A stretch of 64,000 bases of DNA from Deltaproteobacteria bacterium (GTDB taxonomy: Bacteria; Desulfobacterota; Desulfarculia; Adiutricales; Adiutricaceae). Positions 8,360 to 61,768 of the stretch are shown here, one piece after another. The notes below the pieces were generated by a model. The model saw only the letters and a list, made by a program, of their open reading frames with translations. It was not told the DNA's origin and did not search any database. A program made the position numbers and the translations under genes. The stretch is from assembly GCA_031276635.1 (NCBI GenBank), contig JAISMU010000045.1, positions 2,955 through 66,954 on the forward strand. The letters are read 5' to 3'. Within the stretch, counting starts at the first letter, position 1. Every line of letters starts with the position of its first letter.

Positions 8360-9076
8360 GGTTTATCCTCTCCAGGCGTTGACCTGAAAAATTATATGAC
8401 AAGTCATTAAATAATCATCAAATAAGTATAAAAAAAGATAAATAAAAAGTCAAAAAATTTTTGTAAACACCTCAGACTGACCATAGTTTGTTCGGAAGGC
8501 AAATTTTATCAATAGCGGTCTTAAGTCAAATGGTCCGGAAAATTAAAGGGGAAAAAAATAGAACGGACGTTAGTCCCTTTTTTTTCCTCGGATTTGAGCC
8601 CTAAAATGTTAAGATAAGTTGTCGAATTTATTTTAAAATAAAAAAAAACCGAAAAATTTCTTCAGTTAGCCCTTTTTTTTCTTGACTTCTTTCGGCCATG
8701 AGCTTAAAAATTAATTGTCAGCCCACTTTTTGGGCCGATAAAAATCAAGTAGCTCCCTTGACATTCGTCGGGGAAGACTTATTTTTAAGTTAAGACAAAC
8801 GGAGGTTTAACTAGTTTGGCCTTTGTTGGTTCTTACAGTCAGCCTCCTCAGGCTGGCCTCGGCTCAAGACCCGTCGCTCGTCAGTGGGTGATTCTGCGGC
8901 GGGCGGAAAAGACTTCTTTTCTGATCCAATTCGCCTTGATCAGGCGTTGGACTGAAAGGGCGATAGGGTAAAGGAGCCAAATCCCCTCAGCCTTCGGGCT
9001 GTTTTATCCCATCAAAAATCCGCGTATATATCCATTCAGTACGTATGGGGTTTACCCCATAACCTGCCAAAATAAA

Positions 9077-9104
9077 CAGCGGTCGCCATCACTGGCGACC
9101 GCTG
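9077..9104 (-). terminator. strong hairpin with T-run on the minus strand
   Basis: CAGCGGTCGCCA (9077-9088) and TGGCGACCGCTG (9093-9104) form a 12-bp perfect stem with a 4-nt loop. On the minus strand it is followed by TTTATTTT. Confidence 0.4.
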
Positions 9105-9306
9105 TCTCCGTTTGAGGCTCAGAAAAGAGCGGGCCAAACTTATCTCCATGATGTTAGATTTTAAACCGGAAGCTTGACTAAAAGCCAGTTAGATAAAAAT
9201 TTGGGTGTAGGGTTTTTTTAATTGGTAAATATTTCCTTATAATATGCTAAAATCGTCTCTGAGGATTCCCATCAATTTGTGAAATTAAACATTTTTTGGC
9301 CAAGGA

Positions 9307-9534
9307 GTGGAATATCCATATTTTAACAAGAAAGAAGTCTGTAACATAGCTAACCGAGGAAATTATGGCAAAAACCACGATAAGGACCTACTCAACTGTC
9401 TAATCTGTGGCAAATGTTTTGCCGCGACTCAACAAACTCCTTTATTAGGGGCTCACCTGCCCATTGAAAAGGTCCACCAGATTATCCACCACGCCGCCGC
9501 AGGCGTAAGCGTAAGGTCAACTGCCCGTCTCTAG
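9307..9534 (+). pseudogene. IS1-family InsA-like transposase N-terminal fragment (relic)
   Basis: The translation has a zinc-finger remnant (LNCLICGKCF). This is followed by an HTH-like block, HQIIHHAAAGVSVRSTARL-stop-EINKATVNQAI, which parallels the IS1 InsA block [27 protein letters not shown]. It is interrupted by a stop and no InsB-like part follows. Confidence 0.5.
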
Positions 9535-9760
9535 AAATTAACAAGGCCACTGTTAACCAGGCTATAGTCAAGGTAAGCGAAAAATTCTAAAGTTCGGATT
9601 TTTTGCCTACGTTAACTTCATGAAGAAAAAGGGCTCCATGGAACTGGCGCGGCTTAAACAAAACTAAGGATTCCCTTGATGGCTGTCTATTCGGCTAAGG
9701 CGGGGATGCCAAGCTTCATGGCCAAGCTCTTGGTTCGTAGAGTAGACAATATTTTTAAAA

Positions 9761-11026
9761 TTAAAAGTCAATAGAATAATTTATTAAAGCTATTATAGAT
9801 GTTAAGAAAATCAAAATACCAATTAATAAAGTAAAATTTTTAATTAATTGAAACTTAGTATAATCAATTTTTTTTGAATTAAATAGATTAAATATTTTAA
9901 TAATAAATTTTTTTCCAAATAAAGTTATTAAAATAATAAAAAATAAAAATACAATAGATAAATATTTAAATAAATATGCTAATAGTGTTGAATTTTTAGA
10001 AAAATCATACCAGGCAAGCGACAGGTCTTTAGGTAAAAAACTTGAGTGTTTAAATGAAATGTCTAAGTCTTCTTGAGCTATAGAAGTATTAACACAAGGA
10101 TTTTGTAATATAATATCAATGCCAGTTTTACCTTTTCGAAGGTTTCCATAAATATATTCAAAACTTTGTTGACCGCATTTTGACATAAATTCAATTAATT
10201 GGTTACTTTGATTGAATTTATGACTAATAGAAAAAATATGACTAAAATAATGAGATTTTTCTGGTAAAATATCTATTAATTTGTTTAATTGATTTATTTG
10301 ATCTATATCATTGCATGATTGTAATCTTAATGAAAATTGAGACCATGAACCTGATTTTTTATATAACTCATATATTGGAATAAAAATATTTTGTAATTTA
10401 GTAATTTTTTCCGAATTATTATAGTCACTAAAACCTTTTAATACCATTTTTAAAAAGTTTAACATTTTAGGTGAAAAAAGTCCAGCTTTTTTAGCATTTT
10501 TAGCTAAAGAAACACCTGGATCAGCTGGCGGATATAAGCTACTAGCCAATCCGGCAGCGCTTAAGAGAACCACTACTTCATCTGTGTTGTCTTTTAAAAT
10601 TAGTTCTTTAGTTAAATCCCGAAAATCTCCCCAAATAATAAAATCGCCAGTTGTCGCTCCGGCTAAACTGCTTAAATCATCAATTTCTCCGGTTAAAAAA
10701 CCTTTTCCAGCACTATAAGCCTTACCTAAAATAGAATTTTTATCTTCTAATTTTTTTGAATAAACTTGTTTTAAATGTTCAACTGGAAATTTATCAGCCA
10801 TATTATTGACAGAAATATATTCTAAAACAGAAATAGCAGATATAAAATCATCTTTAGATGCATATTCTTCTGCAATAGGACGAAAATCAACATCTGGTAA
10901 TTCAGCTAATTTATTTAAAAAATTACTTTGATCATTTTGAATTGTTTTAGGAAGAATAAATTCAAATATAGCAATATATAATGAGATACATAATAAAATA
11001 ATTAAAATAATTCTGGCTTTTAACAT
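9761..11026 (-). CDS. hypothetical membrane protein encoded by very AT-rich DNA
   Basis: This is a 421-codon open frame in DNA where stop codons should be frequent, which argues for a real gene. It has an N-terminal TM helix (IILIILLCISLYIAIFEFIL) and two C-terminal TM helices. I recognise no family. Confidence 0.6.
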   Translation of the reverse strand: MLKARIILIILLCISLYIAIFEFILPKTIQNDQSNFLNKLAELPDVDFRPIAEEYASKDDFISAISVLEYISVNNMADKFPVEHLKQVYSKKLEDKNSILGKAYSAGKGFLTGEIDDLSSLAGATTGDFIIWGDFRDLTKELILKDNTDEVVVLLSAAGLASSLYPPADPGVSLAKNAKKAGLFSPKMLNFLKMVLKGFSDYNNSEKITKLQNIFIPIYELYKKSGSWSQFSLRLQSCNDIDQINQLNKLIDILPEKSHYFSHIFSISHKFNQSNQLIEFMSKCGQQSFEYIYGNLRKGKTGIDIILQNPCVNTSIAQEDLDISFKHSSFLPKDLSLAWYDFSKNSTLLAYLFKYLSIVFLFFIILITLFGKKFIIKIFNLFNSKKIDYTKFQLIKNFTLLIGILIFLTSIIALINYSIDF

Positions 11027-11406
11027 AAAACACCTCGTAAAAAAGTTTAAATATTACTTTTAATATAAATAATTAGTAATAGTAAATAATTAAATATTAA
11101 GAGTTAAAAAATATTATTATAATTAATTAATAAAAAATAATTTTTTTTACAAATAAGTATTGAAGACAGTTATCTTCGAAACTGAATCAGGACTAGAAAT
11201 TAAACTGACAATAGTTTAGTCTTCATGGGATAATTCTATAAAAAAAAGAATTCCTGTCAATGACAAAAATAAATTTAAGTTATCGGGACTCTATACCCAT
11301 AGATTTTGTTAAATCTAAATTGAGGTTAAAAATTAAAAGGCTCCTCTTGACTACGGACGCGCCTGGCATGTCCATATAATCCGTCAACTGGAGCTTCGCC
11401 CCCAGT

Positions 11407-13864: not shown

Positions 13865-14539
13865 CTACTCAACTTTTCGCCCCAGGCGCTCAAATCTGAG
13901 TCTTTGGGTAAATGAAAGATCTTTTTCTGGGTTCCAGGACCAGTAAATTCGCCAGGCCTTGCCGCGCAAAAGCGAGGAGCTCACGCAACCCCACATTCTA
14001 GAGTCGTTGGACTGGTCGCGGTTATCGCCCATCATAAAATAACTGTTGGCCGGAACTACGGTGGGTCCGAAGTTGCGATAGTGATTGGGGAGCTCGGTCT
14101 GGCGGTAAAAGGCGTGGGGGTCGGCGATGGGCTTGTCATTAATGTAAATCTGGCTGGCGATGATCTCCACTTTTTCCCCCGGTAGCCCGACCACCCTTTT
14201 GACAAAATCGGTTTTGGGATTTCCCGGGTATTTGAAGACCACCACATCCCATCTCATGGGTTCACCAACTTTTATCCAGACTTTGTTGGTAAATGGATTT
14301 CTCAGTCCATAGGAAAATTTGTTGACTAATACTCGGTCGCCTTCCAGAAAGGTTGGGATCATGGAGCCTGAGGGAATGTGGAAGGCCTGAATTATAAAAG
14401 AACGGATTAACAGGGCCAGAACAATGGACAGGGCGATGATCTTGCCATATTCCCAAATCTGCGTGGTCCAGGGTATGGCGGCCTCGACTTTGGCCTCCGG
14501 GGCTGGTGTGGTCGGAACGGGTTTTTTGGATTTTTTCAT
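13865..14539 (-). CDS. lepB: signal peptidase I
   Basis: Catalytic Ser box (IPSGSMIPT), Lys box (KRVVGLPGE) and the GDNRDQSNDSR box. There is one N-terminal TM helix. Confidence 0.93.
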   Translation of the reverse strand: MKKSKKPVPTTPAPEAKVEAAIPWTTQIWEYGKIIALSIVLALLIRSFIIQAFHIPSGSMIPTFLEGDRVLVNKFSYGLRNPFTNKVWIKVGEPMRWDVVVFKYPGNPKTDFVKRVVGLPGEKVEIIASQIYINDKPIADPHAFYRQTELPNHYRNFGPTVVPANSYFMMGDNRDQSNDSRMWGCVSSSLLRGKAWRIYWSWNPEKDLSFTQRLRFERLGRKVE

Positions 14540-15327
14540 AATTTTAATTAATTATTAGTTGACATTGCTTTATTTTTCTTTATGAAGAAAAGGTTAAAAG
14601 CGAAAAAAAATAAAACGGATAAAATTAAAAGCAAATATTGTTTTTTAATCCAAAAACCGATCTTAAGGCCTTCTACCAACCTTCTGGTCCAGAAAATCAG
14701 CAAATTTAAAGAATAAGCTTGATTACCAGTAAAAAAAATATAAGCAATCCAAAATATAGTAATTTTTAACCAAGGACCTTATCTCCTAGATTATTTTGGA
14801 GGCCAGGCCCAAAAAGGTCAAAACAGCATAACACAAATAAAAGAAAAAAAGAGCTTTTTTCCGCCGCCAGTCTGGCCAGGTGGTATTCTCTGGTCATGGG
14901 CCGGATTAGGTGGGCGGAACATTGGAATTATATGAATAAATATAAAAAAAGTCAAGGTTTTTAAGGTCTTGAGCCATACTGGGAGCTTTAACTTGTCTTG
15001 AAACTCTCCCAACAAACTTTTTCTAACTATTTGAACTTTTATTACTAATAAATATAATAATTTATAAAATAATTATTATAAATAATAATTTAATAATTAA
15101 AATTACATAATAATCTTAACAATTTAATGTAATGTCTTCTTGAAATGCAAGTCAAGAGACTTTTGCTAATTTAATCGCTCCTGCCAAGGGAACGGGAAAA
15201 ATTTAAGGGTATTTGCCAATCCCAAGGTTATCGGAGTATACTCCAAAGAAATCATGGCTCCAAAAAAACCGAGCTCGGCTGGTTCAGCCGGGAGAAGGGT
15301 GGCTTATTTTGGGGGAAGGAAGAGAAA

Positions 15328-15603: not shown

Positions 15604-17038
15604 GCCGGTCAGTCAGGTTGGCGGTGGGGAAAATTCTCCAGCGTTGTTCGGCCCAAGGGAAGGTCGACCTTTACTTCATTCTTTTTTATCGCGTCTGGCC
15701 TTAAAAAATACAAAATTTAGAAATTAACATGGTAAAACTAGTATCGAGAGTTCTATAAATTATCATCTTTATTCTTTTTCAGGGTATGTTATAAGATTGA
15801 TAGTTTTCTTTAAAGATCTAGTTTGAACAACTCCTTCTTTAAGCTATATAGATACCATCATATATTATTTTTTTAATGTTAAATTTATCTGCAGTTAAAT
15901 AGATAAAATGATCTATTTAACTATATTTTTGCTCCCTTTAGCCCGACCTAGTGGTCTTTTCCTTTCAGAATTCCGTTCAAATTCAGGGATGACTGAGGTC
16001 TTCTTGTTTTTACGCCCTTTTTGTACGCCTCCTGAAGCCAAAGGATTCTTTTGTAGCGGGTTGCCACTTTCAAGAGCGAACGGACAATCTAAGTTCAATC
16101 GCCCGAAGATTTCTTTTTGTTGTATAGTTAGATCTTCTAGAAATACTACATAATAATATATTTTAATCAAATAATTGCATATAACCTTTAAAGTTGAATG
16201 CGCACAGTATTTAGAAGAAGATGGGTGATAATTTAAATATTAATATAATAACTAAAAATAAGATTAATAAAATCAATCTAAGTGTACCTTCTGAATAACT
16301 TCTGAGTGGTGATTAATCTCTGTAAGTTTTATTTAAGCCAAAAATTTGCTTAATATCATGCTTAATATAATATAAAGGTAAAATTAAAATAATATAAAAG
16401 TTATTTAGCGATAAAATAGTAAACTTTATATTTAAAATTCAATATAATTTATCTTCATGCTTTTTATGAAAAATATAATAGTATATAAGTAATTACCAAA
16501 TAGTAATATGTGCGCAAATGAGTGCGCCTTATCAGCGCGGCGTGAGTCCACGTCAGGGAAGCGTCAGTCTCCCTGAAGCCGATCGTAACTGCGTCACCGT
16601 GAAGTGGGGTGGGGAGCGACTAAAAAATGCAACACATTTTAAGAGATTGTCGTCCAAATTCAAATAAAATCGTCTTTAGATAATTTATTGCTATATAATA
16701 TATTTTAGTTTATTTAAGATAATTAAAAATATTAAATATTATATTAGGGTAGGGAAGGGTCTCTCTTCCCCTACCTCCGATCCGGCTTTTCCATCGGCTA
16801 TCTGGTTTTGGGCCGGGTTGAGGGTTGGCCGCCAGGCATAAATTAAAACACCGACCGCTGTTAATTTTGGTCTATTAAATCCCGCCAAATATTGATATAA
16901 TTTATAAATTATTCTATCAGGCCACTCTCAACCAGCCCGAGGATAGCGGGCTAGTTGGCTGGCCCGGACCTTAGGCCGCTTGAGACCTGAGGGTTGTTTC
17001 CGGCCTATGGGCCAGAGTATTGGGGGACGGGGTTTTCT

Positions 17039-22781: not shown

Positions 22782-23600
22782 AGAAAAGGCTGCGTTTGGA
22801 AAAGTTTGGTTTTTTCGCCAATGGCTTTTAAACAAATTTTCGCAAATTTCTGAGCGCCGCCGATTGACCATCATCCTTGAGCCAGTTTTAACTTAACCGG
22901 TGGAAGGCGACTGATCCTTCTTCAGCGTTCAGAGGGTTAAAACCCGACTGGCTCACCGAGTAACGGGCTAATTTCAGGAAGGTTATTTTATCTCAGGGAG
23001 GCGACTTTTTCGTCGACGCCTGGGCATTCTCAGGGGCTTCAGCTTAGCGCCGCTTGGTGGTGATTTGGGGCATTTCTTTTCCCAACAAAATTAAGGCCCA
23101 ATTTAGCGACTTGTAAATGTTCAATTGATTCTGACCACCCTCGACGACCCAACTTCTGACTTCCTCTTTATTAGTTCCAACTTATTAATCGATATAATTG
23201 TTAATTATAGTACTTTATTTAATGATTTAAAATAATATTATGGTTGCGGCGGCCCAATCCGCGTCAGAGTTGGGGGTGAGTGTCTTTCTTCCTCTATGAG
23301 GTGAGAGTCAAGTCCCTCTAATGTCAGGAGTAGCGATCCAGATGGACCACGAGCTAGGTGAGGTCTTCCGTGAGGGGGACTTTGAATCGTTAGTAGGGAA
23401 AAATTAGGCCAGCTAATTAAGCGATGAAAATTATTAAATAGGGTTGTAGACGTTGTAAAAATAAGCGGAAGACTATATTCAGAGTTATTATTAAATATAA
23501 ATTAATTAAAATTAAATTTCAAGGTATTATACAGATATTTGTAGCCGATAATTTTTTTGGAATTTAGGTTATTGAATGATTTGGGGTCAGAGCGGAATAA

Positions 23601-23636
23601 AAAAAAAGAAAAACCCGTTGAAAACGGGTTTTTCTG
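23601..23636 (-). terminator. rho-independent terminator downstream of dfx (potentially bidirectional)
   Basis: AAACCCGTT-GAAA-AACGGGTTT hairpin flanked by an A-run on one side and a T-run on the other. It lies 20 nt beyond the dfx stop. Confidence 0.65.
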
Positions 23637-29209: not shown

Positions 29210-29345
29210 TGATGTCTTCGAAAAAACCCTGGTTTTTAAAATTGTGCCTCAAATAAAATTAGTGATTTCAATATGTTACCACAGTAATTAGTGAAAGTAT
29301 GACTTTTTTCGGAATAATCAGGCTCTGAGGCAGTTAATAGATAAT
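29210..29345 (+). repeat. dispersed non-coding repeat R1, copy Z
   Basis: TGATGTCTTCGAAAAAACCCTGG...AAAATTGTG..CAAATAAAATTAGTGATTTCAATATGTTACCACAGTAATT closely matches 54670-54793. It also matches 60975-61094 in reverse complement. Confidence 0.7.
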
Positions 29346-44085: not shown

Positions 44086-45050
44086 GGCCCCCCAGAATAA
44101 AATCGCGCCATCAGCCAGGACCAGTTGGTCAGACGCCTCTCTGGCCGCCGGCCAGTGAGCTCTCCGTCTTGTGAATTTCCTTTCCACGAAAAAAAAATCA
44201 GACTCTGATGAAAAAAGAGACCGCCAGGCTGGGCAAATATGTTGGCCCCCGAGGATTTTCGCCATGAGGGGCTTCAGGTTTAGGCTTGACTGTTAGGGAG
44301 GAGACCAGCGGAGCCAAGTTTGGGCAAAATGTTCGGGTTGAGCTGACGTCCTGACAGTGAGTTTCGACCGGGAGCCCAGGCTTTTGGGGAACGCTATGAC
44401 CGCCGCTGTTTTATTAAAGAATCTCTAATGTCCTATTGGGATTGTTTTATCACGAAACATATTTATATAATATGGAAAATAAACTGCCTGAAAAATGTAA
44501 TTAATTAAAAAAATTAAAATATACATTTGAATATCAGTTTAATAACATAAGATTAATTAAGATAATTAATTTTTATTAAGTATAAAAAATGATTTAAAGT
44601 TATATATTTATTATAAAATGTACAAAATAATAAAGTATAAATTTAAAGTTGTGTTAAATGAATAATATATAAAATATTTACTTGAATTATATTATTAATC
44701 AATAAATCTTTGCAGCTAAATATTTTATAAAAATAATTTATGTATTATTATAGTAAAATTTTAAATTAAACAAGCGAACAAATTTTTTCTGGCCTAATAA
44801 AAAATTTAACTTTTGATGTCTGTAATTTGTCATATAAAATTAATATTATCAGATAAAAAAAGTAATGACAGGAAATTGTCAAAATTTAGTATGCCTAACA
44901 TATAGAAAATAATATATATTTTTTTGATATTATTTTTAAAACAGTTTTATAAAGGCTGCCGAATAAGAATCTTCATTTTGAATCTAAAAAAGGTAAAAAA
45001 ATTTTCCTTCCCCGCAAAAAAAATTTGACAAAGAAAAAATTTTATTTTAC

Positions 45051-45088
45051 CCTTGTTTTAGATCAAATCATATTTGATTAAAACAAGG
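45051..45088 (+). promoter_or_regulatory. hairpin overlapping the transposase Shine-Dalgarno sequence
   Basis: CCTTGTTTTAGATCAAAT-cat-ATTTGATTAAAACAAGG (one indel). The 3' arm ends in AAGGAG, 7 nt before the ATG at 45096. Confidence 0.45.
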
Positions 45089-45095
45089 AGTTCGC

Positions 45096-46673
45096 ATGGC
45101 CGAAACTCAAGTCACACGGATTGATGTGAATTCTCTTTCTCAACCTCCTCTCCCGGGCTATATTGTATTGGACAATACAAATAGCGGTACTTATGCTAGG
45201 TATTTTGAAAACAGACCTAAATTTAATGGCAAATATCAGCGAGTATATTTTAATATTGGTAAAATTATTGATGATAAGTTAGGAATTTATAAGAATTCTA
45301 AACTTGGATTTATTTCTTTCTCCTTACAAAATGGAATAGGAACTGTTCCTCCAGGTTTTGTAGACCCATCTATTGAAAATCGATTGGAGCATATAACACT
45401 TAATTTTGGTGATATATGGATGTATAATCATTTTTTAAAAAAAATTGGTCTTGATTCAATAATAGACAGTCTTATTCCTGAAGAAAATAATTTTTTTAAA
45501 GCATTAGTAGGATATAGATTACTGGAACCAATGCCCTATAGTTATGCTGAAGCTTGGTATCGCAAATCTTTTGCTCTTATTCTTTATCCGGATGCGAATC
45601 TAAGTTCCCAAAGAATTAGTGATTTTTTAGTTAAAATTGGACATGAAGATATATACAATTCATTTTTTAACTATTATTTTAGTTTAATTTCAAAAAATAA
45701 TAATATAAATAAAAAAATTTCTTTTCCAATACTTATTAATAGTACTGGCTTGCTAAATGATATTAAAATTAATTTAACTGCTGCTAAAAATAATAATAGT
45801 ATAATAAATAATGAAATGAGACTTATATATGTTATTGATAAGAATACTAAATTACCTATTTATTTCAGATATGTATCTGGAAAAATTATTGATAATAATA
45901 TATTAATAAATACGTTAAATATTTTATCTCCATATAATATTAATACAGAATTAATTATCATGGATGCCGGATATTATTCTGGAAATAATATATCTGAATT
46001 AATTTCTACAAATATTCCTTTTATTATAAGAATGACAAAAAATAGTAAAGAATATAAAGAGTTAATGGTTAAGTATGGTGATAATCTGAAAACTACTAGA
46101 AATTCAATTAAATATGAATCTAGAGTCTTATTTGGAATAAAAGTACCTATTATATTATATGATACACAATTATTTGCTTATATATTGTTGGATATCGATA
46201 CTGCAAGGGAAGAAGAAAAAGGTATTATTTATAAATACGATATTAACGAAGATAATTATAATGATATTCAAGAAAAATTAAATTCAGCTGGTAAATTTAT
46301 TTTATTGTCATCTGTTGAATATGATATTCACGAAATGTTGCCTTTATACTTCACAAGACAACATATAGAAAAAATTTTTGATATTTGTAAATCATATATA
46401 GATATAATGCCATTAAGAGTTCATAACGAAAAATCATTAAGAGGAACATTATTAATATTTTTTATTACTTCAATTATTTATTCTTTTATAAGTAATGAGT
46501 TGAAAAAATCTGAATATAATGTAATTGGTTCTTTTTATCTTATGAAATTATTACAAATTGATATATATAATTCATCTAAAATTGTGCAAGAACTAACTAA
46601 AGACCATCATGAAATAATTAAACTTTTAAATATTGACTGCCCATATAAAATTGAGACAGGTAATCAGTTATAA
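45096..46673 (+). CDS. IS4-superfamily (IS1634-like) DDE transposase, AT-rich
   Basis: 525 aa with an IIMDAGYYS block (second catalytic Asp context). The diagnostic Y-(2)-R-(3)-E-(6)-K signature is present in YFTRQHIEKIFDICK. I could not define element ends or inverted repeats. Confidence 0.75.
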   Translation: MAETQVTRIDVNSLSQPPLPGYIVLDNTNSGTYARYFENRPKFNGKYQRVYFNIGKIIDDKLGIYKNSKLGFISFSLQNGIGTVPPGFVDPSIENRLEHITLNFGDIWMYNHFLKKIGLDSIIDSLIPEENNFFKALVGYRLLEPMPYSYAEAWYRKSFALILYPDANLSSQRISDFLVKIGHEDIYNSFFNYYFSLISKNNNINKKISFPILINSTGLLNDIKINLTAAKNNNSIINNEMRLIYVIDKNTKLPIYFRYVSGKIIDNNILINTLNILSPYNINTELIIMDAGYYSGNNISELISTNIPFIIRMTKNSKEYKELMVKYGDNLKTTRNSIKYESRVLFGIKVPIILYDTQLFAYILLDIDTAREEEKGIIYKYDINEDNYNDIQEKLNSAGKFILLSSVEYDIHEMLPLYFTRQHIEKIFDICKSYIDIMPLRVHNEKSLRGTLLIFFITSIIYSFISNELKKSEYNVIGSFYLMKLLQIDIYNSSKIVQELTKDHHEIIKLLNIDCPYKIETGNQL

Positions 46674-48027
46674 AAACTATCATATGTGCAAAATTACAAT
46701 CTAAAAATACAAAAAGAAGCCGTTTTAAGTGAAATAAAAATTGACAAAAACCTAATTTATCAATAAATAATGTTTAAAATAATATTATTAATAAAAAAAA
46801 GATGACTCCTTAATGGAAGTAAAAATAAGTTTAATAAAAATCAATAAAAAAGTAATTTTTATTTATTTTATTTCTTTTAGATGTTTAATTAAATTTTTTA
46901 TATTAAATAATTAATATTTTAAAATTAATGTAATTTTATAAAGTAAAATTTCCCATCACCGGATCATGGCGAGCGCCCCTAAATTGAAGCGCAAAAAAAT
47001 GTTTTTTTTAGATCCAAAAAAATTGGGAACTACGGATTAATAAAAAAATAAATTTTTGTATTCTTTAAGAATATTATCAACTTAATAAAAATTTATACCT
47101 TTAAATTAATCTTGCTCTTAAAAGACCAATCTTAAATAACCTATATTCATCTAAATTTTTATAGATATATTTTTTCAGCATGAATATCTTCTGCTTTTAA
47201 TCAGAAGAACTAAATTTTTGTAAAATTTTACTTTAAACTGACACAAACTATTAACAACCGGACAAAAAAATTTTGTAATAAAATCATCACATTAGCATCT
47301 CAGTATGAAAGGTTTTTTAACCATATCAAGGATGGAAAATAATGCTCATTGGGCATGGCCTCCACTCCTCGAGTCTGAAATGTCAAAAGTCTCTGTTCTG
47401 ATTTTGGAAAATTGTATTTAGTTTTCTAGAAAAAAATAATATATATTGCTATAATTTACGATCAATATATAATAAATCACATAAAAATAATAATTTAATC
47501 ATTAAATTTATAACTAAGTAATTTATAAAATTTTGATTAACACTAATTCATTCATTTTAGAAACAATTATACTGATATATTTGGTTTGAACAACTAATTG
47601 ATAGAGTTATTAAAGGTGGTAAATGATAAAAAACTGTTTTTAATCAATTTAATGATATTAAATTTTTAATATTTTTGATATTATTATTGTAAATAGACTA
47701 AATATATAACAAAATTTAAATTAACAATATCTTGTTAAAATGCTAGAGAAATATATATTTTCAACTTTTGGTTTAATTTTTGTTATACGGCAAACAGGCG
47801 GGAAATTTTAAGACTTTCCAGCTGGGGTGGGTTACGGCGATTTAGCCCGACCTCAACGCCTCCAGTTTCTTTCAATTTAAGACGCGGGCGGTCTGGCCAA
47901 AGCGCGGTTGCGGATCTATTTTAACCGTGGTCATTAGCGGGCGCAATATTTTTAATGGCCAGCGAAACGTGTTGTCACGCGGCCCTGACCATGCTATTAT
48001 TAGTCAAATTAATTCATTGGGGCACCT

Positions 48028-48637: not shown

Positions 48638-49768
48638 ATGAGTAGAGACAGGCTCAGAAAAACCCGGCGCCTGGTGGTTAAGATAGGCAGTCAGGTCATC
48701 AGTGATGGGTCCGGGCTGGCTTTGGGCCGACTGAGGGCTTTGGCCCATCAGATCGCCGAACTCAAAAGGCAGGGCCGGGAATGCTTGGTGGTATCATCTG
48801 GAGCTGTGGCCTCAGGCGTTAAACGACTGGGTTTAAGCGTCCGCCCCACCACCTTGCGCCTCAAGCAGGCCGCCGCCGCCGCTGGCCAAGTTGCCTTGAT
48901 GATGGCCTGGGAAAAGGCTTTGGGAGTCTTTAACCTCAAAGCCGCCCAAATCCTCTTGACCGCCGAGGACCTGGCTGATCGAGGCCGATTCCTCAACGCC
49001 AAAAACACCTTGTCCGCCCTGCTGGAGATGGGCCTGATCCCGGTGGTCAATGAGAATGACACTGTGGCTGTGGAGGAGCTCAAGGTCGGGGACAATGACA
49101 CCCTGGGGTCCTTGGTGGCCTCTCTGGCCGAGGCGGACTTGTTTGTCAACCTCACCGACCAGGAGGGTCTGTTTGACTCAGACCCGAAAACCAACCCCGC
49201 CGCGTCTCTGATTGAGGAGGTCCCCAAGGTCTCCGCCGCGACCCTGGCCTTGGCCGGGGGATCTTCGGGACCATTGGGAACCGGGGGCATGCTGACCAAA
49301 GTCCGGGCGGCTGGTCGTCTGGCCGAGCGGGGCGTGCCGTCCATCATCGCTTGCGGCCTGACTCGGGACATCCTTTTACGACTGATCGAGGAAGAGAGGT
49401 TAGGGACTTATTTTCCGCCCGCCGTCAAAAGGCGAGGGGCCTATAAGCACTGGCTGGCTTTCGCCGCTCGGCCCAAAGGCGCGCTGGTGGTGGACGCCGG
49501 GGCGGCGGCGGCTCTGCGGGAAAGAGGCAAAAGTCTCTTGCCCGGGGGAGTGGCCGGCGTGGAAGGCCTATTCGCGGCGGGAGACCCGGTCTCCATAACC
49601 CTGGCCGGTCAAGATCCCTTTGGAGTGGGTCTGGTCAACTACAGTTCCCCAGAAGTGAGTCAGATCATGGGTCTGGCCAGCCACGAGATCGCCGCTAAAC
49701 TCGGCTATAACCATTCCGAGGAAGTTGTTCATCGCGATAACCTGGTCGTTTTTCCAGTCCAGGACTGA
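48638..49768 (+). CDS. proB: glutamate 5-kinase
   Basis: The N-terminal amino-acid-kinase domain is supported by the blocks VVKIGSQVISD, VVSSGAV, NENDTV, DNDTL and GTGGM. A C-terminal PUA domain follows. 376 aa. Confidence 0.95.
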   Translation: MSRDRLRKTRRLVVKIGSQVISDGSGLALGRLRALAHQIAELKRQGRECLVVSSGAVASGVKRLGLSVRPTTLRLKQAAAAAGQVALMMAWEKALGVFNLKAAQILLTAEDLADRGRFLNAKNTLSALLEMGLIPVVNENDTVAVEELKVGDNDTLGSLVASLAEADLFVNLTDQEGLFDSDPKTNPAASLIEEVPKVSAATLALAGGSSGPLGTGGMLTKVRAAGRLAERGVPSIIACGLTRDILLRLIEEERLGTYFPPAVKRRGAYKHWLAFAARPKGALVVDAGAAAALRERGKSLLPGGVAGVEGLFAAGDPVSITLAGQDPFGVGLVNYSSPEVSQIMGLASHEIAAKLGYNHSEEVVHRDNLVVFPVQD

Positions 49769-49982
49769 TAGTTCTAACATTTTTTTAAAACTAACTAAAA
49801 AAAATTAATATATAAAAATTAATTTTTTAAATAAAGCATTATTATTTCAAATATTTATCTATATTAATATCTAAAAAAATTTGGATTGGTTTTTTGTCAT
49901 CTTGCTCTGTCAAAAAAATTTATTTCAAAATATATCTATTTTTCTTTAAGATTAACTTACCAACTTAGATTAGGAAAAGCGA

Positions 49983-51590
49983 ATGAAAATTCGTTGTCTG
50001 GGAGCCATTAGGACAGTTACCGGTTCATGTTTCCAGCTGGAAAACCCGGCAGGCGGCCTGACTCTGCTGGACTGTGGCCTTTTTCAGGGTGGCCGCCAGA
50101 CAGAGTTGCGTAATTTTAACACAGCCCTTTATAAGCCCGACCAAGTTCGGGCTATAGTCATAACCCACGCGCACATGGATCACTCGGGCCTGGTTCCCCG
50201 TCTGGTCAAGGCCGGGTATCGGGGCCCAGTATACGCCACCCCGGCCACCAGCGAGTTGTTGAGGATCTTGTGGCTGGACGCGGCCCATATCCAAGAGCAG
50301 GAGGCCAGTTGGAAGACTCGCAAGAATAAGCGTCAGGGCCAGAAAAACGTGGAGGCGCTGTACTCGGAAGAGGACGCTCTACTGGCCGGGAAGCTTCTGG
50401 AGCCCCTCGCTTCCAACCAAGCCGTGGAGATCCAGCCTGGCTTAACTGTGACTCTGATTCCGGCTGGCCACATTCTGGGGGCGGTTAGCGCGTTATTCAC
50501 AGCCTGGGATAAAGGTTCCGAGGAGCGGGTTTTATTTTCTGGGGACCTAGGGCGTCATGGTCAATTGTTGTTGCCTGATCCGCAGATCCCCCCGCCGGTC
50601 GACCTGATCTTTATTGAAACAACTTACGGCAATCGTCGGCACAAAGATCTGGGCTCGTCCATTGAGGAATTGGTGACGGTCATAAACCAGGCTTACCGGG
50701 AGGGCGGCAAAGTCCTCATTCCGGCCTTCGCGGTGGAGAGAACCCAGGAAATTCTGTTCCTGCTGTCCACGCTCTGGCACGAGGGCCGGATCCCGCGGGA
50801 TATCCCGGTAATTCTGGACTCACCCCTGGCCACCTCCACCAGTGAGGTGTATATCCAAAATCAGAGTCTCTTTGACCAGAATTCCCGGCGGCTCATCAAG
50901 GAGGGATTCAGCCCCCTGAGCGTGACCACCCTCCGGGTGACCCGGTCCATGGAGGACAGTCGCCAGATCAATGACCTTGAAGGGTCAGCTGTCATCGTGG
51001 CTGGCTCGGGCATGGCCAACGCCGGTCGAATCCTCCATCATTTAAAGCATAATCTTTGGCGGCCCAACTGCCACGTGGTCTTTGTGGGTTTTCAGGCTCA
51101 AGGCTCCACCGGTCGACGTTTGGTGGATGGGGCCGAATCGGTTAAGCTCTTTCGGGAGTCGGTTTTGGTTAAGGCGCGGATCCACACCATTGGCGGCTTT
51201 TCCGGGCACGCTGACCAAGCCGAGCTGGTGGAGTGGTTGCGACCGCAGATCCATCCTGGCCTGAAAGTGGTCCTGATTCACGGGGAAGAGGCTGGCACCC
51301 TAGCCTTTGAGGAACATCTTCATGGCCTGTTTCCAGATTTGGCCACTGTGGTCCCGCATTGGTTGGAGACCCTGGAGGCGACCGGGACCAGGATTCCAGC
51401 CGAGTCGCCCCAGGAGGCTCAGGCGATGGTGGCCGACTGGAGCCGCAGCTTTCAGAATCGCCTGGCCAGGCTCTCGGGCTGGCTGGCTGGACGCCAGCGA
51501 CCCTTTGAGCCAGCGGAGCTGGCTGACCTGGAGAGTCTGTTGAGCCGGGCCGAAGAGATGGTCTTAAGAGATCAGGCCTCGATCGATTAA
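49983..51590 (+). CDS. MBL-fold beta-CASP family RNA-metabolising hydrolase
   Basis: Metallo-beta-lactamase motif ITHAHMDHSG, beta-CASP blocks (IETTYGNR, IPAFAVERTQE, GFSGHAD) and a C-terminal extension. SD AGGAAAAG. Confidence 0.85.
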   Translation: MKIRCLGAIRTVTGSCFQLENPAGGLTLLDCGLFQGGRQTELRNFNTALYKPDQVRAIVITHAHMDHSGLVPRLVKAGYRGPVYATPATSELLRILWLDAAHIQEQEASWKTRKNKRQGQKNVEALYSEEDALLAGKLLEPLASNQAVEIQPGLTVTLIPAGHILGAVSALFTAWDKGSEERVLFSGDLGRHGQLLLPDPQIPPPVDLIFIETTYGNRRHKDLGSSIEELVTVINQAYREGGKVLIPAFAVERTQEILFLLSTLWHEGRIPRDIPVILDSPLATSTSEVYIQNQSLFDQNSRRLIKEGFSPLSVTTLRVTRSMEDSRQINDLEGSAVIVAGSGMANAGRILHHLKHNLWRPNCHVVFVGFQAQGSTGRRLVDGAESVKLFRESVLVKARIHTIGGFSGHADQAELVEWLRPQIHPGLKVVLIHGEEAGTLAFEEHLHGLFPDLATVVPHWLETLEATGTRIPAESPQEAQAMVADWSRSFQNRLARLSGWLAGRQRPFEPAELADLESLLSRAEEMVLRDQASID

Positions 51591-55677: not shown

Positions 55678-55939
55678 AGAAACAAAACCTCTTTTAAGCG
55701 TTCGCCCGGCTAGGGGCGGGAGTCAACGGGTCAGTCGTTAGCTCAGGGTTATAATTGCCGATAAAAACTTTTGATGTACAGAGTAAAGAGTTTCTTAGAC
55801 TCTTTGGAGAAATAACTACTCAGTATAGACAAATTTCAACTAAAATTTTTATTATAAAAAAAATTATTATAAAAATTGAAAATTAATAAATAAGTAAATT
55901 ATATATTCCGGTAAATAAATATTAGAACTTTATTAAAAA

Positions 55940-56581
55940 CTATTCACGTACCATTTGAGAAACTAAAACTTTAACTGATTGTTTCTGGAGTTGCAGTAAA
56001 GTATATTTAATTCTAAAAACAGCCATAAGCTTTTTAGCTTTTTTTATGTTGAATTTCTCGGGATCGTAGCCCTTAGGGGCCCAGGCTAAAATCTCCTCGT
56101 ACTCTTCGTGAGTCTCGTCCGCCAGAATTTTAAGTTTTCTATAATAACCGTATACTCCACCAGAGTCTTCAATGGGGCAGCGCCTCGCCCCGTCCAAACA
56201 ATCAAATTTCAACGCGGGATTGGTGGGTTTGTAATCAGTGTCAAGCAGTTTTAACTGATGCATCCAGTCATCACCGAAATCATATCTATAATCAATGGTA
56301 GAGCCTTTTTTCAATTGAAAATAGTTAAGATTGACCTTAGAAAGGTTTACTTCCTCAACATGTTTCGGCATACGAATCTTAAAGCCTTCAGGGTCAGGTT
56401 CAACATACTCCACCCCGAATATTGTGAATGAGTATAAATGGTAATTTAACCAACCCATGACGAGCTGGATAACCTCATGAAGCGTGGCCAAGGATATGCT
56501 GCAGGGGACAAAAAAACGACGCCAGATTTTTGGTTTAATCTCTTTCAGCTCAATCCTGAAAAGGTAAAGAGGGACAGTCAT
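55940..56581 (-). CDS. pRiA4b ORF-3-like family protein, paralog S2
   Basis: MTVPLYLFRIELKEIKPKIWRRFFVP..., YDFGDDWMH, CPIEDSGGVYGYYRKLKILADETHEEYEE...YDPEKF. I prefer the ATG at 56581 (SD AGGTG). Confidence 0.85.
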   Translation of the reverse strand: MTVPLYLFRIELKEIKPKIWRRFFVPCSISLATLHEVIQLVMGWLNYHLYSFTIFGVEYVEPDPEGFKIRMPKHVEEVNLSKVNLNYFQLKKGSTIDYRYDFGDDWMHQLKLLDTDYKPTNPALKFDCLDGARRCPIEDSGGVYGYYRKLKILADETHEEYEEILAWAPKGYDPEKFNIKKAKKLMAVFRIKYTLLQLQKQSVKVLVSQMVRE

Positions 56582-56629
56582 TTTAGCACCTGGTCTTTGG
56601 GGTAAAAAAAAGAACATTAAATGGGAAAA

Positions 56630-59310: not shown

Positions 59311-59907
59311 ATGAATCAGCTGCAATCATATCAGGAACTCAGTTTGAACCCTGGGGCTTCGGAGTGGGAGATTAAAGCGGCTTTTCGGCGTCTGGCCAAG
59401 GATAGTCACCCCGACAGCGCGACTGACGGGGGCAACCCGCAAAAGTTTCAGAAGGCCTTTGAGGCCTACCAAAATCTCTTAGCCAAGGCTCGGGAGCGCC
59501 GGGAAACGGTTGAGCGAGCCCTCAATGGGGCCAGATTTCAATTTTTGAGTCAAAGGCAAGAGGGCCTGGACATCTATTATGACTTGGCCCTGGTTTGGGG
59601 CGATGGCCCAGTTACCTTGACGCTGCCTAAGGCCACCCAGGAAGTTTGTCCTCGGTGTTTTGGCCAGGGCCGGACCTTGACGCAATTAAGCCAGGGCTCC
59701 GTTTATCGACCGACCATTTGCCCCCGCTGCGGCGGGGAAGGTCATATTGATCGCGTCAGCCATATCACGGCTCACTTGACCGAGGAAATGGCTCGGGCTG
59801 GAAAAATCAGGCTCAAGGGAGCGGGGGCTCAGGCGACCAAGTCAGACCAGCGAGGCGATCTTTATCTTACGGTTCATTTGGTCGATAAATTAGATAAAAA
59901 TCATTAA
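59311..59907 (+). CDS. J-domain protein with half zinc-finger and CTD-I-like region, paralog Q3
   Basis: The J-domain has an intact HPD (SYQELSLNPGASEWEIKAAFRRLAKDSHPD). It is followed by GLDIYYDL, CPRCFGQG, CPRCGGEG and IRLKGAGA...RGDLYLTVH. SD AAGGAGG precedes the ATG at 59311. Confidence 0.8.
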   Translation: MNQLQSYQELSLNPGASEWEIKAAFRRLAKDSHPDSATDGGNPQKFQKAFEAYQNLLAKARERRETVERALNGARFQFLSQRQEGLDIYYDLALVWGDGPVTLTLPKATQEVCPRCFGQGRTLTQLSQGSVYRPTICPRCGGEGHIDRVSHITAHLTEEMARAGKIRLKGAGAQATKSDQRGDLYLTVHLVDKLDKNH

Positions 59908-60233
59908 TTATATCTAAATCATATTTTAAAATAATATGATAGCAATAAATTTTTCTAAATAGAAAAACTTGAAAATTATGAGTTAAAATTTTATTCTGAT
60001 TGAAGTTCTAAATTTTATTGATTGTAAAAACCGGCAATAGTTGCGCTGTTCCATTTTTCTGTCCGCGGTCCGGAAATTTCAGGGCCACTTTTGGAATAAT
60101 AACAAGATTTTCAACACAACAAGATATTGTGCCACTTTTTTAAATTATTAAAATTTTAATAGTATTTAATATAATAGTAAATATTATATATTATTTACTT
60201 AATGTCAATATTTAATTAAATTAACTATGTCCA

Positions 60234-60338
60234 TTAGTAGTTTACCGAGGAGCTGCCTAGAACTGCCATTGGGCAGAGACCCTGGACCCTTATTATTGCC
60301 ACAATTATTGCTACAATTAATAGAACTATTTTTAACAT
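60234..60338 (-). CDS. candidate 34-aa hydrophobic peptide
   Basis: My own translation is MLKIVLLIVAIIVAIIRVQGLCPMAVLGSSSVNY. AAGGAAAAA lies 8 nt upstream of the ATG. It sits in an otherwise ORF-free AT-rich island and is too short for the ORF track. Confidence 0.3.
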   Translation of the reverse strand: MLKIVLLIVAIIVAIIRVQGLCPMAVLGSSSVNY

Positions 60339-60974
60339 ATTGAGATTTTTCCTTAAGACCGGAGGTAAAACCCAGAATCACAGTTTCTAGAATGAATAAA
60401 TATTTTTTATTTTTCTAAATTTTAGATACAACAAAGAAATTATTTGTTATTTAACGCATACGAACTATATTTTCAGGAAGGTAGACATAATCTTCTGGCA
60501 ATGGTGGCACTTTCTTCTGGAATACTTAAAAAGAAAATATTAAAAATATATATAGGATGATATATTAATTTAAAATAAAATTAGAATATTAATTTAGTAT
60601 ATAGATATATTATTTATTTAAATTTAATCTAAAAAGTTTTAATAAAGTGAATTTATAGATAAATTTATTCTTTGGTTTTTGCCACCGAACGCAAGATATA
60701 GTGGCCCTCTTTTTTTCGGAATGGTGGTCACTCCAAAATGGAAGGCGGCGCCACGAAAAACCGAACAAAGGCTATTCTGACTGGAATTTACAACCAATGA
60801 TATTTTTTTTAATGCGAAGTTAGAAAAAAAATTTTTGTATCATCTATAAAATATATTAATTAAATTAAATCAACATAAAAATGTTAATTAGAAAAATAAT
60901 TAAAGATAGGATCAAATTATTTTTACATCAGTTATTTCTCACTCTAAAAGCACGAGTTCAGTCTGTACGGCTTG

Positions 60975-61094
60975 TTATTAATGATGTTAGTAATATATTT
61001 GATGAAAAAAATTGATTAACAATGGTAATATACTAAAATAATTAAATTTATTGGTGTAATGATTTTCAAAGCTAGCGTTTTTGCGAAGGCGTCA
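60975..61094 (-). repeat. dispersed non-coding repeat R1, copy Y (reverse orientation, more diverged)
   Basis: The reverse complement reads TGACGCCTTCGCAAAAACGCTAGCTTTGAAAATCATT...AATAAATTTAATTATTTTAGTATATTACCATTG, colinear with copies X and Z. Confidence 0.55.
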
Positions 61095-61649
61095 AATTTG
61101 TCATAAGAAGGATTTTTGATCAGGCCTTAATTCTGACAAACCGCCCTCTATGGCCCCTCAAGCTGGTCAGCGTGACCAGACAGTCAGGGCTAATCACGCG
61201 CATCCCGCCAAACGCAGAGGCATTCAGCCGTTCCAAGGCCTCAAAATAATTGTTAGCCCTTTTTCCTGACGAGCTCGACGCGAAGGAAAGATATTTTTCA
61301 AACCGCCCTTCGGAAAGGAGCGCGGCTAATTTTTTTTCCGGTTGGAGAAACGGGCCTAATTTTTGGTAGTCGACTTTAATTCGTAAAATCGGACCGACAG
61401 CCCATTAAAGTCAGGGGTTTGACGAGAATATTTAGTTCATCATCCAGGTTTGGATTAGGGTGGCCGGCCAATTCATCTAGAAAAATTTAACTTATTTGGC
61501 CTGTCAAAAAAAAAAGCTATTTTTTACAATTATAGTTCATTTCAGTTAACTATATTCTTTTAACTAAATAAAAAGTTAATAATATAAAAATAGAGGGATA
61601 TTAAGGAAAAGTCGTCTTAACATTTTTTTGACAAATTCTAAAAAAGTTC

Positions 61650-61678
61650 TTGCCATCGTCTGGGCTTGGGATTATATT
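61650..61678 (+). promoter_or_regulatory. sigma70-like promoter for the lytic transglycosylase gene
   Basis: TTGCCA (61650-61655), a 17-nt spacer, then TATATT (61673-61678), about 90 nt upstream of the ATG at 61769. Confidence 0.4.
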
Positions 61679-61768
61679 GATTTTCAATTGTGAAGCCGGT
61701 CGAGTGTAACAATTTTACCCACCCGGGTAATGCTATAGTTTTGGGCGTTGCCACAGTCTGTTTTTTTT

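Follow-up and report, generated by a model that had tools for sequence, protein, structure and literature searches.

The window, the 64,000-nucleotide stretch of DNA analysed here, typifies a genome composed of two compartments that differ in base composition. The first, at about 58% G+C with a GC3 of 72-77%, consists of native translated genes together with short operon spacers and short terminator spacers; the second, at about 24% G+C, consists of non-coding DNA plus AT-rich mobile or accessory genes and repeats. The source is an uncultured deltaproteobacterium, a relative of Desulfarculia/Adiutrix, whose habitat may be a termite or arthropod gut. The genome-wide two-compartment trait is itself unusual: the contrast is extreme, yet the forces behind it are already known. 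The explanation we favor, with moderate confidence, combines AT-biased mutation of DNA unconstrained by coding, retention of unusually much spacer, and import of AT-rich mobile DNA.

Base composition of the window and its genome

The preliminary description of this DNA reported sharp AT-rich blocks between GC-rich genes, and these are real. All 13 blocks it listed (Table 1) are AT-rich, with G+C of 0.166-0.349 (17-35%) against 0.55-0.67 in neighboring genes, and together they occupy 18% of the window; its hand counts of G+C are exact (8/60 at 44461-44520, 14/60 at 45721-45780, 40/60 at 12001-12060). A two-state HMM with states set at 0.22 and 0.58 G+C assigns 51 AT segments to 21.9% of the window. 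Many borders are sharp. At the proB stop, G+C falls from 0.54 in the last 100 nt of the gene to 0.09 in the next 100 nt, and comparable changes are seen at the starts of the alpha-2-macroglobulin (0.58 to 0.25) and signal peptidase (0.54 to 0.18) genes.

Table 1. AT-rich blocks of the window and selected adjoining genes, in window coordinates.
Coordinates	Strand	Feature	Context	Evidence
2516-8359	minus	alpha-2-macroglobulin-like gene		Pfam
8387..8716	.	AT block, 28% G+C	promoter-side spacer directly upstream of alpha-2-macroglobulin-like gene	HMM, sequence, Pfam for gene
9748..11338	-	AT island	intact 421-aa ORF and its AT-rich upstream flank	HMM segment
13865-14539	minus	signal peptidase I gene
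14522..15175	.	two AT blocks, one at 27% and one at 21% G+C	upstream of signal peptidase I gene	HMM
15670..16917	.	string of four AT blocks, 16-23% G+C, with GC-normal islets between	upstream of ORF 16994-17818	HMM
23167..23613	+	AT blocks	around group II intron D1-D4 fragment (23309-23534)	HMM
26403..27222	.	AT block, 23% G+C	downstream of phage/plasmid-like gene TIGR03299 (25375-26403)	HMM
29233..30452	.	three AT blocks	between rlmE-like paralogue and rlmE	HMM
33403..33551	.	AT block, 18% G+C	within divergent spacer, 32543-33208 (minus) / 33662-34189 (plus)	HMM
44409..47787	+	largest island, 22% G+C	IS1634-family DDE transposase gene and AT-rich flanks	HMM, Pfam
49768..49991	.	proB-RNase J spacer, 214 bp, 17% G+C	flush with stop and start codons
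52338..52646	.	AT block, 21% G+C	long non-coding stretch after RNase J gene	HMM
55749..56056	.	AT block, 22% G+C	between minus-strand paralogous ORFs 54970-55677 and 55940-56617	HMM
59858..61651	.	five AT blocks, 16-22% G+C	between ORF 59281-59907 and gene 61748-62707	HMM

Several of these blocks have recognizable content. The intact ORF of the second block (9761-11026, 24% G+C) has no Pfam or NCBIfam match. In the largest island the transposase gene spans 45096-46673 (24% G+C), and a GC-normal islet of 120 nt (46923-47041) recurs on two other contigs at 90% identity. Neither domain V/VI nor a reverse-transcriptase ORF was found for the group II intron fragment, and the TIGR03299 gene is missing from the syntenic region of relative G002. 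One copy of a dispersed repeat, R1, falls in the first of the three blocks next to rlmE (about 29210-29320), an inverted and diverged copy lies in the final group of five, and the block that follows RNase J has a dispersed repeat in common with other AT blocks.

Across the 3.48-Mb assembly, two-state segmentation finds 1,935 AT segments totaling 481 kb (13.8% of bases), with G+C of 0.239 against 0.577 elsewhere. Windows of 100 bp with less than 30% G+C make up 7.6% of this genome, 2-15% of six other MAGs of the genus, all of which display the pattern, 0-2% of other genera of the family, some of which display it faintly, and 0-0.5% of other families of the order, where it was not seen. Chance is ruled out as the cause because 7.6% of windows here, and 0-0.5% in the order's other families, fall below that limit. 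The preliminary description had allowed that such spacers might simply be the norm for the clade; they are the norm in this genome and in its genus, so within its genome the window does not stand out. Spacers in the genus have 0.40-0.44 G+C, compared with 0.53-0.57 in the three relatives sampled outside it. The proB genes of the genus have a GC3 of 0.60-0.70; most other genera of the family reach 0.79-0.90, with G009 at 0.63. ORFs cover 0.74 of this genome, 0.68-0.70 of its congeners, 0.91 of G011 and 0.86 of G013, leaving about 26% of the genome outside ORFs against 9-14% in the latter two relatives, which lie outside the genus; these coding fractions, like the spacer classes below, are approximate because gene calls came from one crude, home-made ORF caller. 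Part of the non-coding DNA is not AT-rich. Roughly 0.5 Mb outside ORFs is at 0.53 G+C, and only some 12% of this DNA resembles native coding sequence.

Position relative to genes and comparison with relatives

Most non-coding AT DNA is found on the promoter side of genes and between transcription units. Genome-wide, an AT block is present in 82% of divergent and 34% of convergent spacers. The preliminary statement that most intergenic gaps are AT-rich goes too far, as a block occurs in only 1-14% of tandem (operon) spacers shorter than 150 bp and 0-13% of convergent spacers shorter than 300 bp; the 26-kb ribosomal-protein cluster contains none, and long convergent spacers carry one in 78-89% of cases. 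Block sizes are mostly 50-300 bp, within a range of 0.05-3 kb. Placement of borders within about 20 nt of start or stop codons, also proposed, describes only a minority of blocks: 32% of blocks genome-wide lie within 20 nt of a start (19% by random placement) and 20% within 20 nt of a stop (again 19%), with a median distance to start or stop of about 90-110 nt.

Many AT-bearing spacers recur between the same pair of genes, at similar length, in G002, G005, and G006. The gap holding the intron fragment has nearly the same length here (875 bp) and in G002 (871 bp), where it is also AT-rich; the divergent spacer around 33403..33551 measures 453 bp in this genome, 425 bp in G002, and 426 bp in G006, with sequences that cannot be aligned. 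The recurring spacers are unalignable, whereas genes align at about 71%, and none of 17 window spacers found a blastn or tblastx match in 257 kb of congeneric DNA. Position kept while sequence is unalignable fits fast, unconstrained evolution. Other gaps differ in size. The gap of the largest island measures 3,942 bp here and, between the same flanking genes, 1,063 bp in G006 and approximately 300, 120, and 40 bp in G002, G003, and G008. The proB-RNase J spacer, at 214 bp here, measures only 16-47 bp in three congeners; in G003 it is AT-rich and about 360 bp long, in G010 GC-normal and about 680 bp long. A further spacer has 41 bp in this genome and 171 bp in G002. In these syntenic comparisons the sites of this genome's AT blocks hold no detectable gene in any relative, the one exception being the gap that holds the rlmE paralogues.

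Mobile content, mutation, and alternative origins

Of all AT bases, 34% are in ORFs and about two thirds are non-coding, the ORF share reaching 59% in blocks of at least 750 bp. The 110 AT-rich ORFs of the genome are of mobile or accessory type; among them are an IS1634 transposase family of 10 members, an SNF2 helicase, and a gene for a GTPase-like protein. The helicase and GTPase genes in AT DNA are of the kind found in defence systems. Transposase homologues occur in contigs with 32-36% G+C, including one labelled Endomicrobium sp. R1, a dispersed 105-nt element that has a terminal inverted repeat of 13 bp, is present in at least 47 copies in the genome and absent from the 257 kb of congeneric DNA. 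Matches to another AT segment were found for 30% of non-coding AT segments (21% of their bases) and never in a shuffled control; for 79% of AT bases the genome holds no detectable relative. Repeats account for about 20% of non-coding DNA, and they are not specific to the AT compartment, since they also make up 17.6% of the bases of GC-normal non-coding DNA, nearly as much as in AT DNA. One paralogue family has 174 ORFs, only about 28 of them full length, and shows no fall in G+C with divergence.

In the explanation we favor, mutation would be biased towards AT, as in bacteria generally, and the lineage would retain an unusually large amount of spacer DNA, so that spacer free of coding or RNA-structure constraint would drift to the mutational equilibrium, about 24-29% G+C. 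Translated sequence would be kept GC-rich by codon and amino-acid selection inherited from GC-rich ancestors, and AT-rich mobile DNA, with relatives in AT-rich genomes, would supply the larger islands, inserting where it is least harmful. Across 47 copies of R1, GC-to-AT changes number 0.203 per site against 0.083 for AT-to-GC, predicting an equilibrium of 0.29 G+C for this one repeat family with changes polarised against its consensus. Codon selection on GC3 is plausible; GC3 is about 0.77 in ribosomal-protein genes against 0.72 in long genes generally. Some observations count against the proposed mechanism. Simple neutral decay leaves unexplained the half megabase of GC-normal non-ORF DNA and the sharp borders found within non-coding DNA. 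Neutral DNA at 24% G+C alongside a GC3 of 72% needs strong fixation bias at synonymous sites, which fits poorly with the weak selection implied by the load of spacer, repeats, and paralogue fragments. Blocks that vary in presence or size among congeners, finally, resemble insertion and deletion more than decay in place.

It is possible, if rather unlikely, that essentially every AT block, whatever its size, is a remnant of AT-rich mobile DNA (IS, MITE-like repeats, intron fragments, defence islands) that was received from AT-rich neighbors and inserted between genes, with a composition that is the donors' and not the product of decay in place. Consistent with this are the IS1634 island, which far exceeds the corresponding gap of four relatives, the group II intron fragment, the transposase homologues in genomes of 32-36% G+C, the matches among AT segments set against a shuffled control of zero, the R1 copies absent from congeneric DNA, the sharp borders, and the varying presence and size of blocks among congeners. 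Yet many AT spacers keep position and length across species, the equally long but GC-normal spacers of G010, from another genus of the family, point to composition change in place, repeats are nearly as common in GC-normal non-coding DNA, and most AT bases lack a relative in the genome. The preliminary suggestion of xenogeneic AT-rich insertions, including IS, has to be divided. It is supported for the large islands, as seen in the transposase gene at 44.4-47.8 kb, where four relatives have a gap of just ~40-1,060 bp, the intact ORF at 9.75-11.35 kb, the intron fragment at 23.3 kb, and the R1 copy in the 29.2 kb block; it does not extend to roughly 1,500 small blocks, many of which occupy the same spacer in several species. 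Much less probable is the idea, also raised earlier, that the blocks are pseudogene ghosts, the fully decayed remains of former native genes. Low coding density, the many fragmentary paralogues, and the IS and intron fragments do indicate that gene decay is going on, but no positive evidence ties it to the blocks: blastx against the genome's own ORFs matched 38 of 565 non-coding AT segments, only one of them to a GC-rich gene, the window spacers (0 of 17) have no tblastx match in syntenic DNA of relatives, genes at AT-block sites were detected in relatives only at the rlmE-paralogue gap, and G+C in the large fragmentary family does not fall with divergence.

Selection offers an improbable alternative, in which the blocks are promoter-side features that serve DNA melting, UP-element-like contacts, curvature, or binding by an organising or silencing nucleoid protein. 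The excess of blocks in divergent spacers and close to start codons argues for it, as do A/T runs of 5-8 nt, which are 2.4-3.7 times as frequent as expected, and a slight positive autocovariance at 10-11 bp. However, congeners share no conserved sequence, the weak phasing lacks a second harmonic, no H-NS or Lsr2 homologue was found, blocks reach 0.3-3 kb, well beyond promoter needs, long convergent spacers carry them too, and they are lacking in the related genera G010 and G011 and in G013, from another family of the order. For the curved or protein-binding spacers of the preliminary description, the evidence is weak: A/T runs are enriched, but the phasing is faint. An assembly or binning artefact, with chimeric joins to DNA of AT-rich organisms, is barely credible. 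The genome is a MAG of 192 contigs, and 104 of 384 contig ends touch an AT block, but the joins at islands are not chimeras, because the flanking GC-rich genes are neighbors and keep their order in three to five relatives whose genomes were assembled independently; the pattern recurs in six other MAGs of the genus, and chimeric joins would not yield, 1,935 times over, blocks of mostly 50-300 bp, about 30% of them abutting a start codon.

Comparison with known systems

In fungi such as Leptosphaeria maculans, AT-rich isochores are made by repeat-induced point mutation (RIP), and there, as here, GC-balanced gene blocks alternate with AT-rich blocks that hold transposon remnants and accessory genes. 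The present case differs in being prokaryotic, with blocks of 0.05-3 kb that are mostly not repeats, and in showing no RIP-like dinucleotide signature ((CpA+TpG)/(ApC+GpT) is 1.14, and TpA, at an odds ratio of 0.87, is not over-represented). Horizontally acquired AT-rich islands of bacteria are subject to xenogeneic silencing by H-NS, Lsr2, MvaT, and Rok systems. The likeness lies in accessory and mobile genes whose AT content far exceeds that of the core genome; the differences are the failure to find H-NS or Lsr2 homologues, the predominance of small non-coding spacers over gene islands, and a contrast, 34 points, far larger than usual. R1, by its length, terminal inverted repeat, and copy number, resembles intergenic repeats of the MITE/REP type, but repeats make up only about a fifth of AT DNA and are equally common in GC-normal spacers.

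Similar in general traits are genomes of the spacer- and repeat-rich, recently host-restricted type, such as 'Ca. Desulfovibrio trichonymphae' with a coding density of 79.8% (PMC5322295); 'junk DNA' has been treated as a marker of genome degradation (PMC3899985). Like them, the present genome combines low coding density and long intergenic regions with IS elements, fragmentary paralogues, and an AT shift relative to relatives. The likeness is one of genome traits, and the description of such genomes does not include a two-compartment composition with sharp borders. Mutation is universally AT-biased in bacteria, with G+C upheld by selection or biased gene conversion, and mutational equilibria are put at 19-34% G+C for four of five lineages (Hershberg & Petrov 2010, PMC2936535). 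The AT blocks, at 24% G+C, lie within that range, as does the repeat-based estimate of 29%, and synonymous sites here are far above equilibrium, as they are in other medium- or high-G+C bacteria. In the published cases, however, intergenic G+C is well above equilibrium and tracks synonymous G+C (46% vs 62% in S. Typhi, 68% vs 90% in B. mallei; PMC2936535), whereas here much of the spacer DNA is itself at about equilibrium, beside a GC3 of 72%.

Extent and placement of the AT-rich blocks

The AT-rich blocks are a property of this genome and its genus, not of the window alone. A sliding profile of the window places genes at 0.55-0.67 G+C and the stretches between them at 0.17-0.35. All thirteen blocks listed in the preliminary description are AT-rich (0.166-0.349 G+C), and its three hand counts of G+C proved exact on recount. 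A two-state HMM (0.22 versus 0.58 G+C) assigns 21.9% of the window to 51 AT segments. The source assembly, a MAG of 3.48 Mb in 192 contigs and 94% complete, contains 1,935 such segments that sum to 481 kb, or 13.8%, with a mean G+C of 0.239 versus 0.577 in the remaining assembly. Genome-wide, AT segments have a median length of 148 bp and a maximum of 3.35 kb; by size class, 41% of AT bases fall in blocks under 300 bp, 31% in those of 300-750 bp and 28% in those of at least 750 bp. Because 104 of the 384 contig ends touch an AT block, the real genomic AT fraction is probably above the assembly figure, and this enrichment of blocks at contig ends explains the fragmentation of such MAGs.

Transitions had been described as abrupt, often within about 20 nt of a start or stop codon. 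Several borders are indeed that sharp, as where the last 100 nt of proB, at 0.54 G+C, are followed by 100 nt at 0.09, but close abutment on coding sequence is not the rule. Blocks lie a median of ~90-110 nt from the flanking gene, and contacts within 20 nt are in excess at starts only (32% versus 19% under random placement).

Spacer statistics were taken between confident native genes only; because ORFs were called with a crude home-made tool that relies on codon usage and the statistics of stop codons, spacer classes and coding fractions are approximate. An AT block occurs in 82% of divergent spacers, 34% of all convergent spacers and 0-13% of convergent spacers below 300 bp, and in 1-14% of tandem spacers below 150 bp and 66-92% of those above 300 bp. 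The ribosomal-protein/EF-Tu cluster, ~26 kb in length and with GC3 of 0.72-0.83, slightly above the genome average, contains no AT block. Most blocks thus sit on the promoter sides of genes or between transcription units, and operon interiors are largely free of them.

Non-coding DNA here is not uniformly AT-rich. Some 0.5 Mb of non-ORF DNA has a G+C of 0.53, and only ~12% of this fraction looks like native coding sequence. One GC-normal non-coding stretch of the window, flanked by two AT blocks, is an example that stays unaccounted for; it has hairpin-like GC-rich segments and an apparent broken reading frame, helix-turn-helix or transposase-like.

Distribution among relatives

Measured in sampled relatives as the proportion of 100-bp windows with less than 30% G+C, the trait reaches 7.6% in this genome and 2-15% in six genomes of the same genus, with 0-2% in other genera of the family and 0-0.5% in other families of the order. 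The proB-region loci of congeners dip likewise, to 9-35% G+C. By the preliminary description, the finding would fall if such spacers were simply the norm for the clade. They are that norm; for a bacterium, the overall trait nevertheless remains unusual. Within the genus, spacers have a G+C of 0.40-0.44, versus 0.53-0.57 in three relatives sampled outside it. GC3 of proB is 0.60-0.70 in the genus; most other genera of the family reach 0.79-0.90, and G009, which belongs to another genus, has 0.63. With one caller used throughout, ORFs cover 0.68-0.78 of the genomes in the genus, 0.91 of G011 (another genus of the family) and 0.86 of G013 (another family of the order); bacteria are typically ~90% coding (PMC3899985).

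RNase J homologues at 72-76% identity carry the label "MAG: Deltaproteobacteria bacterium"; at 58-59% identity the labels are "Candidatus Adiutrix sp." and strain Smac51, and at ~52% come Dethiosulfatarculus and Desulfarculus. These values place the genome close to the Adiutrix/Desulfarculia group. The family Adiutricaceae has been described as a termite-gut lineage that comprises flagellate endosymbionts as well as other members and exchanges genes with Endomicrobia (PMC11257099), and we infer a gut habitat for the source genome itself.

Genes flanking the blocks are adjacent and colinear in five relatives, G002, G003, G005, G006 and G008; contigs of G002, G006, G005 and G003 preserve the gene order of the window between 17 and 51.6 kb. 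Judged by gene order, chimeric assembly joins at the islands, for which the preliminary description had proposed a check, are thereby excluded. Many AT-bearing spacers recur between the same gene pair at similar length (875 versus 871 bp; 453, 425 and 426 bp). The gap that holds the transposase island spans 3,942 bp here; its counterpart measures 1,063 bp in G006 and roughly 300, 120 and 40 bp in G002, G003 and G008, respectively. The spacer between proB and the RNase J gene is 214 bp long in this genome, and three congeners have 16-47 bp there; G003 has an AT-rich version of ~360 bp, and G010, from another genus of the family, a GC-normal one of ~680 bp. Orthologous spacers could not be aligned between species; in 257 kb of congeneric DNA, where genes align (~71%), neither blastn nor tblastx matched any of 17 window spacers.

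Mobile DNA and repeats in the spacers

ORFs account for 34% of AT bases overall and 59% in blocks of at least 750 bp. Genome-wide, 110 ORFs that are 100 aa or longer have less than 35% G+C, among them a ten-member transposase family, an SNF2-type helicase, a protein with a weak double-GTPase match and 69 singletons; an intact 421-aa ORF in one window island has no family match. The transposase of the longest window island belongs to the IS1634 family (NF033559, 146.9 bits, cut-off 100) and also matches Pfam DDE_Tnp_1 (E = 1.4e-13). Its homologues elsewhere sit in contigs of 32-36% G+C, one labelled Endomicrobium sp., and it is one of ten paralogous ORFs of 19-27% G+C in this genome. A genome-wide search for near-identical DNA copies of the island returned none, only fragments at 66-77% identity, and the family here is old and diverged. 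Convincing terminal inverted repeats or recognisable ends were not found in the island, where arm pairs are low-complexity and 70-85% complementary, at chance level for DNA of 22% G+C. Within it lies a GC-normal islet of ~120 nt, with copies of 90% identity on two other contigs (C71 and C4), which represents a second small repeat family.

A match to group II intron domains D1-D4 scores 59 bits for RF02005 against a gathering score of 49. No other intron model, such as one for domain V/VI, matches positions 22700-23700 at E <= 0.1, and the surrounding 875-bp gap holds no long ORF for an intron-encoded reverse transcriptase; the match is thus an intron fragment. A gap nearby in the window is 5.9 kb here versus 2.9 kb in G002, the added DNA carrying a phage/plasmid-like TIGR03299 gene and two additional rlmE-like paralogues; a single rlmE is seen there in G002 and in G006.

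Dispersed repeats make up 21% of AT bases, with zero in a shuffled control, and 17.6% of bases in GC-normal spacers. These shares are nearly equal, and repeats thus mark all spacer DNA, not the AT compartment alone. The dispersed repeat R1 has a consensus of ~105 nt, reading GACGCCTTCGCAAAAACCC...TTTTTGCGAGGGCATC, and 47-55 copies of 75-87% identity at no fewer than 47 sites genome-wide. Its ends, GCCTTCGCAAAAA and TTTTTGCGAGGGC, are complementary at 12 of 13 positions. R1 is thus short, has a terminal inverted repeat (13-bp inverted ends) and occurs in many dispersed copies, all MITE-like features; no copy turned up in the 257 kb of congeneric DNA, which suggests a MITE-like repeat specific to this species. 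No consensus structure emerged among R1 copies with RNAalifold. A very large paralogue family is also spread through the genome; it comprises 174 ORFs or fragments, and ~28 reach full length (540-725 aa). Its members combine the motif YADKT.Y...SRPRRFGKT in the N-terminal region with a nuclease-like part at the C terminus, and we take them to resemble AAA-ATPase-like/PD-(D/E)XK proteins. Their G+C of ~0.45 lies between the two compartments, with no drop as divergence grows.

Positions of features in the window and on other contigs of the same genome
Feature	Sequence	Position	Strand
GC-normal non-coding stretch	window	8800-9750	
Island with 421-aa ORF	window	9.75-11.35 kb	
Group II intron D1-D4 match	window	23309-23534	+
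Gap longer than in G002	window	24711-30575	
TIGR03299 gene	window	25375-26403	
R1 copy	window	29210-29320	
Transposase (IS1634) island	window	44.4-47.8 kb	
GC-normal islet	window	46923-47041	
R1 copy	window	54670-54775	
R1 copy	window	~60975-61094	
Ribosomal-protein/EF-Tu cluster	contig C190	7249-26727	
174-ORF family member	contig C94	20809-22986	
174-ORF family member	contig C19	15644-17782	

Origin of the blocks and comparison with other bacteria

The evidence is best fitted by a genome of two compartments. The lineage would keep much spacer DNA and would have moved towards AT; sequence without coding or RNA-structure constraint would sit near mutational equilibrium, and AT-rich mobile and accessory DNA would have added the larger islands. 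The equilibrium estimated from R1 copies is 0.29 G+C, and published equilibria are 19-34% for four of five bacterial lineages (PMC2936535). Insertion of AT-rich DNA as the source of every block, a possible but less probable reading, explains part of the data. Decay of former genes, also proposed in the preliminary description, fared poorly, since blastx against the genome's own ORFs matched 38 of 565 non-coding AT segments, only one of them to a GC-rich gene. RIP-like hypermutation is rejected for non-coding AT DNA, where (CpA+TpG)/(ApC+GpT) is 1.14 and the TpA odds ratio 0.87.

The further suggestion of selected spacers, curved or bound by nucleoid proteins, likewise possible but less probable, also explains part of the data. 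A/T runs are enriched 2.4-3.7 fold, but phasing at 10-11 bp is faint, and strong intrinsic curvature by design is rejected on that account. AT DNA, at 0.24 versus 0.58 G+C, is much richer in AT than the core genome, as targets of H-NS-type xenogeneic silencing would be; a silencer search covering H-NS and Lsr2 gave no match to H-NS (PF00816) in this genome and none above cut-off in 21 genomes, and no match to Lsr2 (PF11774). Among repair genes, mutS is found and mutY falls below its cut-off across the family and most of the order. Uracil-DNA glycosylase gives strong matches (99-135 bits) in the order's other two families and only weak ones (23-44 bits) in this family, with none in G003. Weak mutY and glycosylase matches are common to GC-rich relatives and so do not track the trait; repair-gene loss is unsupported as a genus-specific cause, the pattern extending to GC-rich genera.

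The two-compartment reading leaves unaccounted for both the large GC-normal non-coding fraction and the strength of the bias that keeps GC3 at 72% beside DNA of 24% G+C. GC3 is slightly higher in ribosomal-protein genes (~0.77 versus 0.72). We think it unlikely that the force raising G+C in this genus acts solely on translated (or transcribed) sequence, one seventh of the genome being at equilibrium. If it does, the genus would be a natural experiment on bacterial G+C that favours selection on coding sequence and disfavours tract-wise GC-biased gene conversion; alternatively, an undescribed process would keep G+C high only within transcription units or lower it outside them.

The forces of the two-compartment reading, AT-biased mutation, AT-rich mobile DNA and spacer accumulation, are known ones; a literature search found no description of such contrast and compartment sharpness for the lineage. 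Composition-based detectors of islands or contamination would flag hundreds of native spacers here. Bacterial intergenic, synonymous and non-synonymous G+C co-vary, usually all well above the AT-rich mutational equilibrium, and whether selection or biased gene conversion keeps G+C there is still debated. With population data, one could test directly in this lineage where the force that raises G+C acts. Synonymous and intergenic G+C normally track each other (PMC2936535, PMC4176184); here 14% of the DNA lies near equilibrium beside genes with GC3 of 72%, so that the compartments are separated unusually cleanly.
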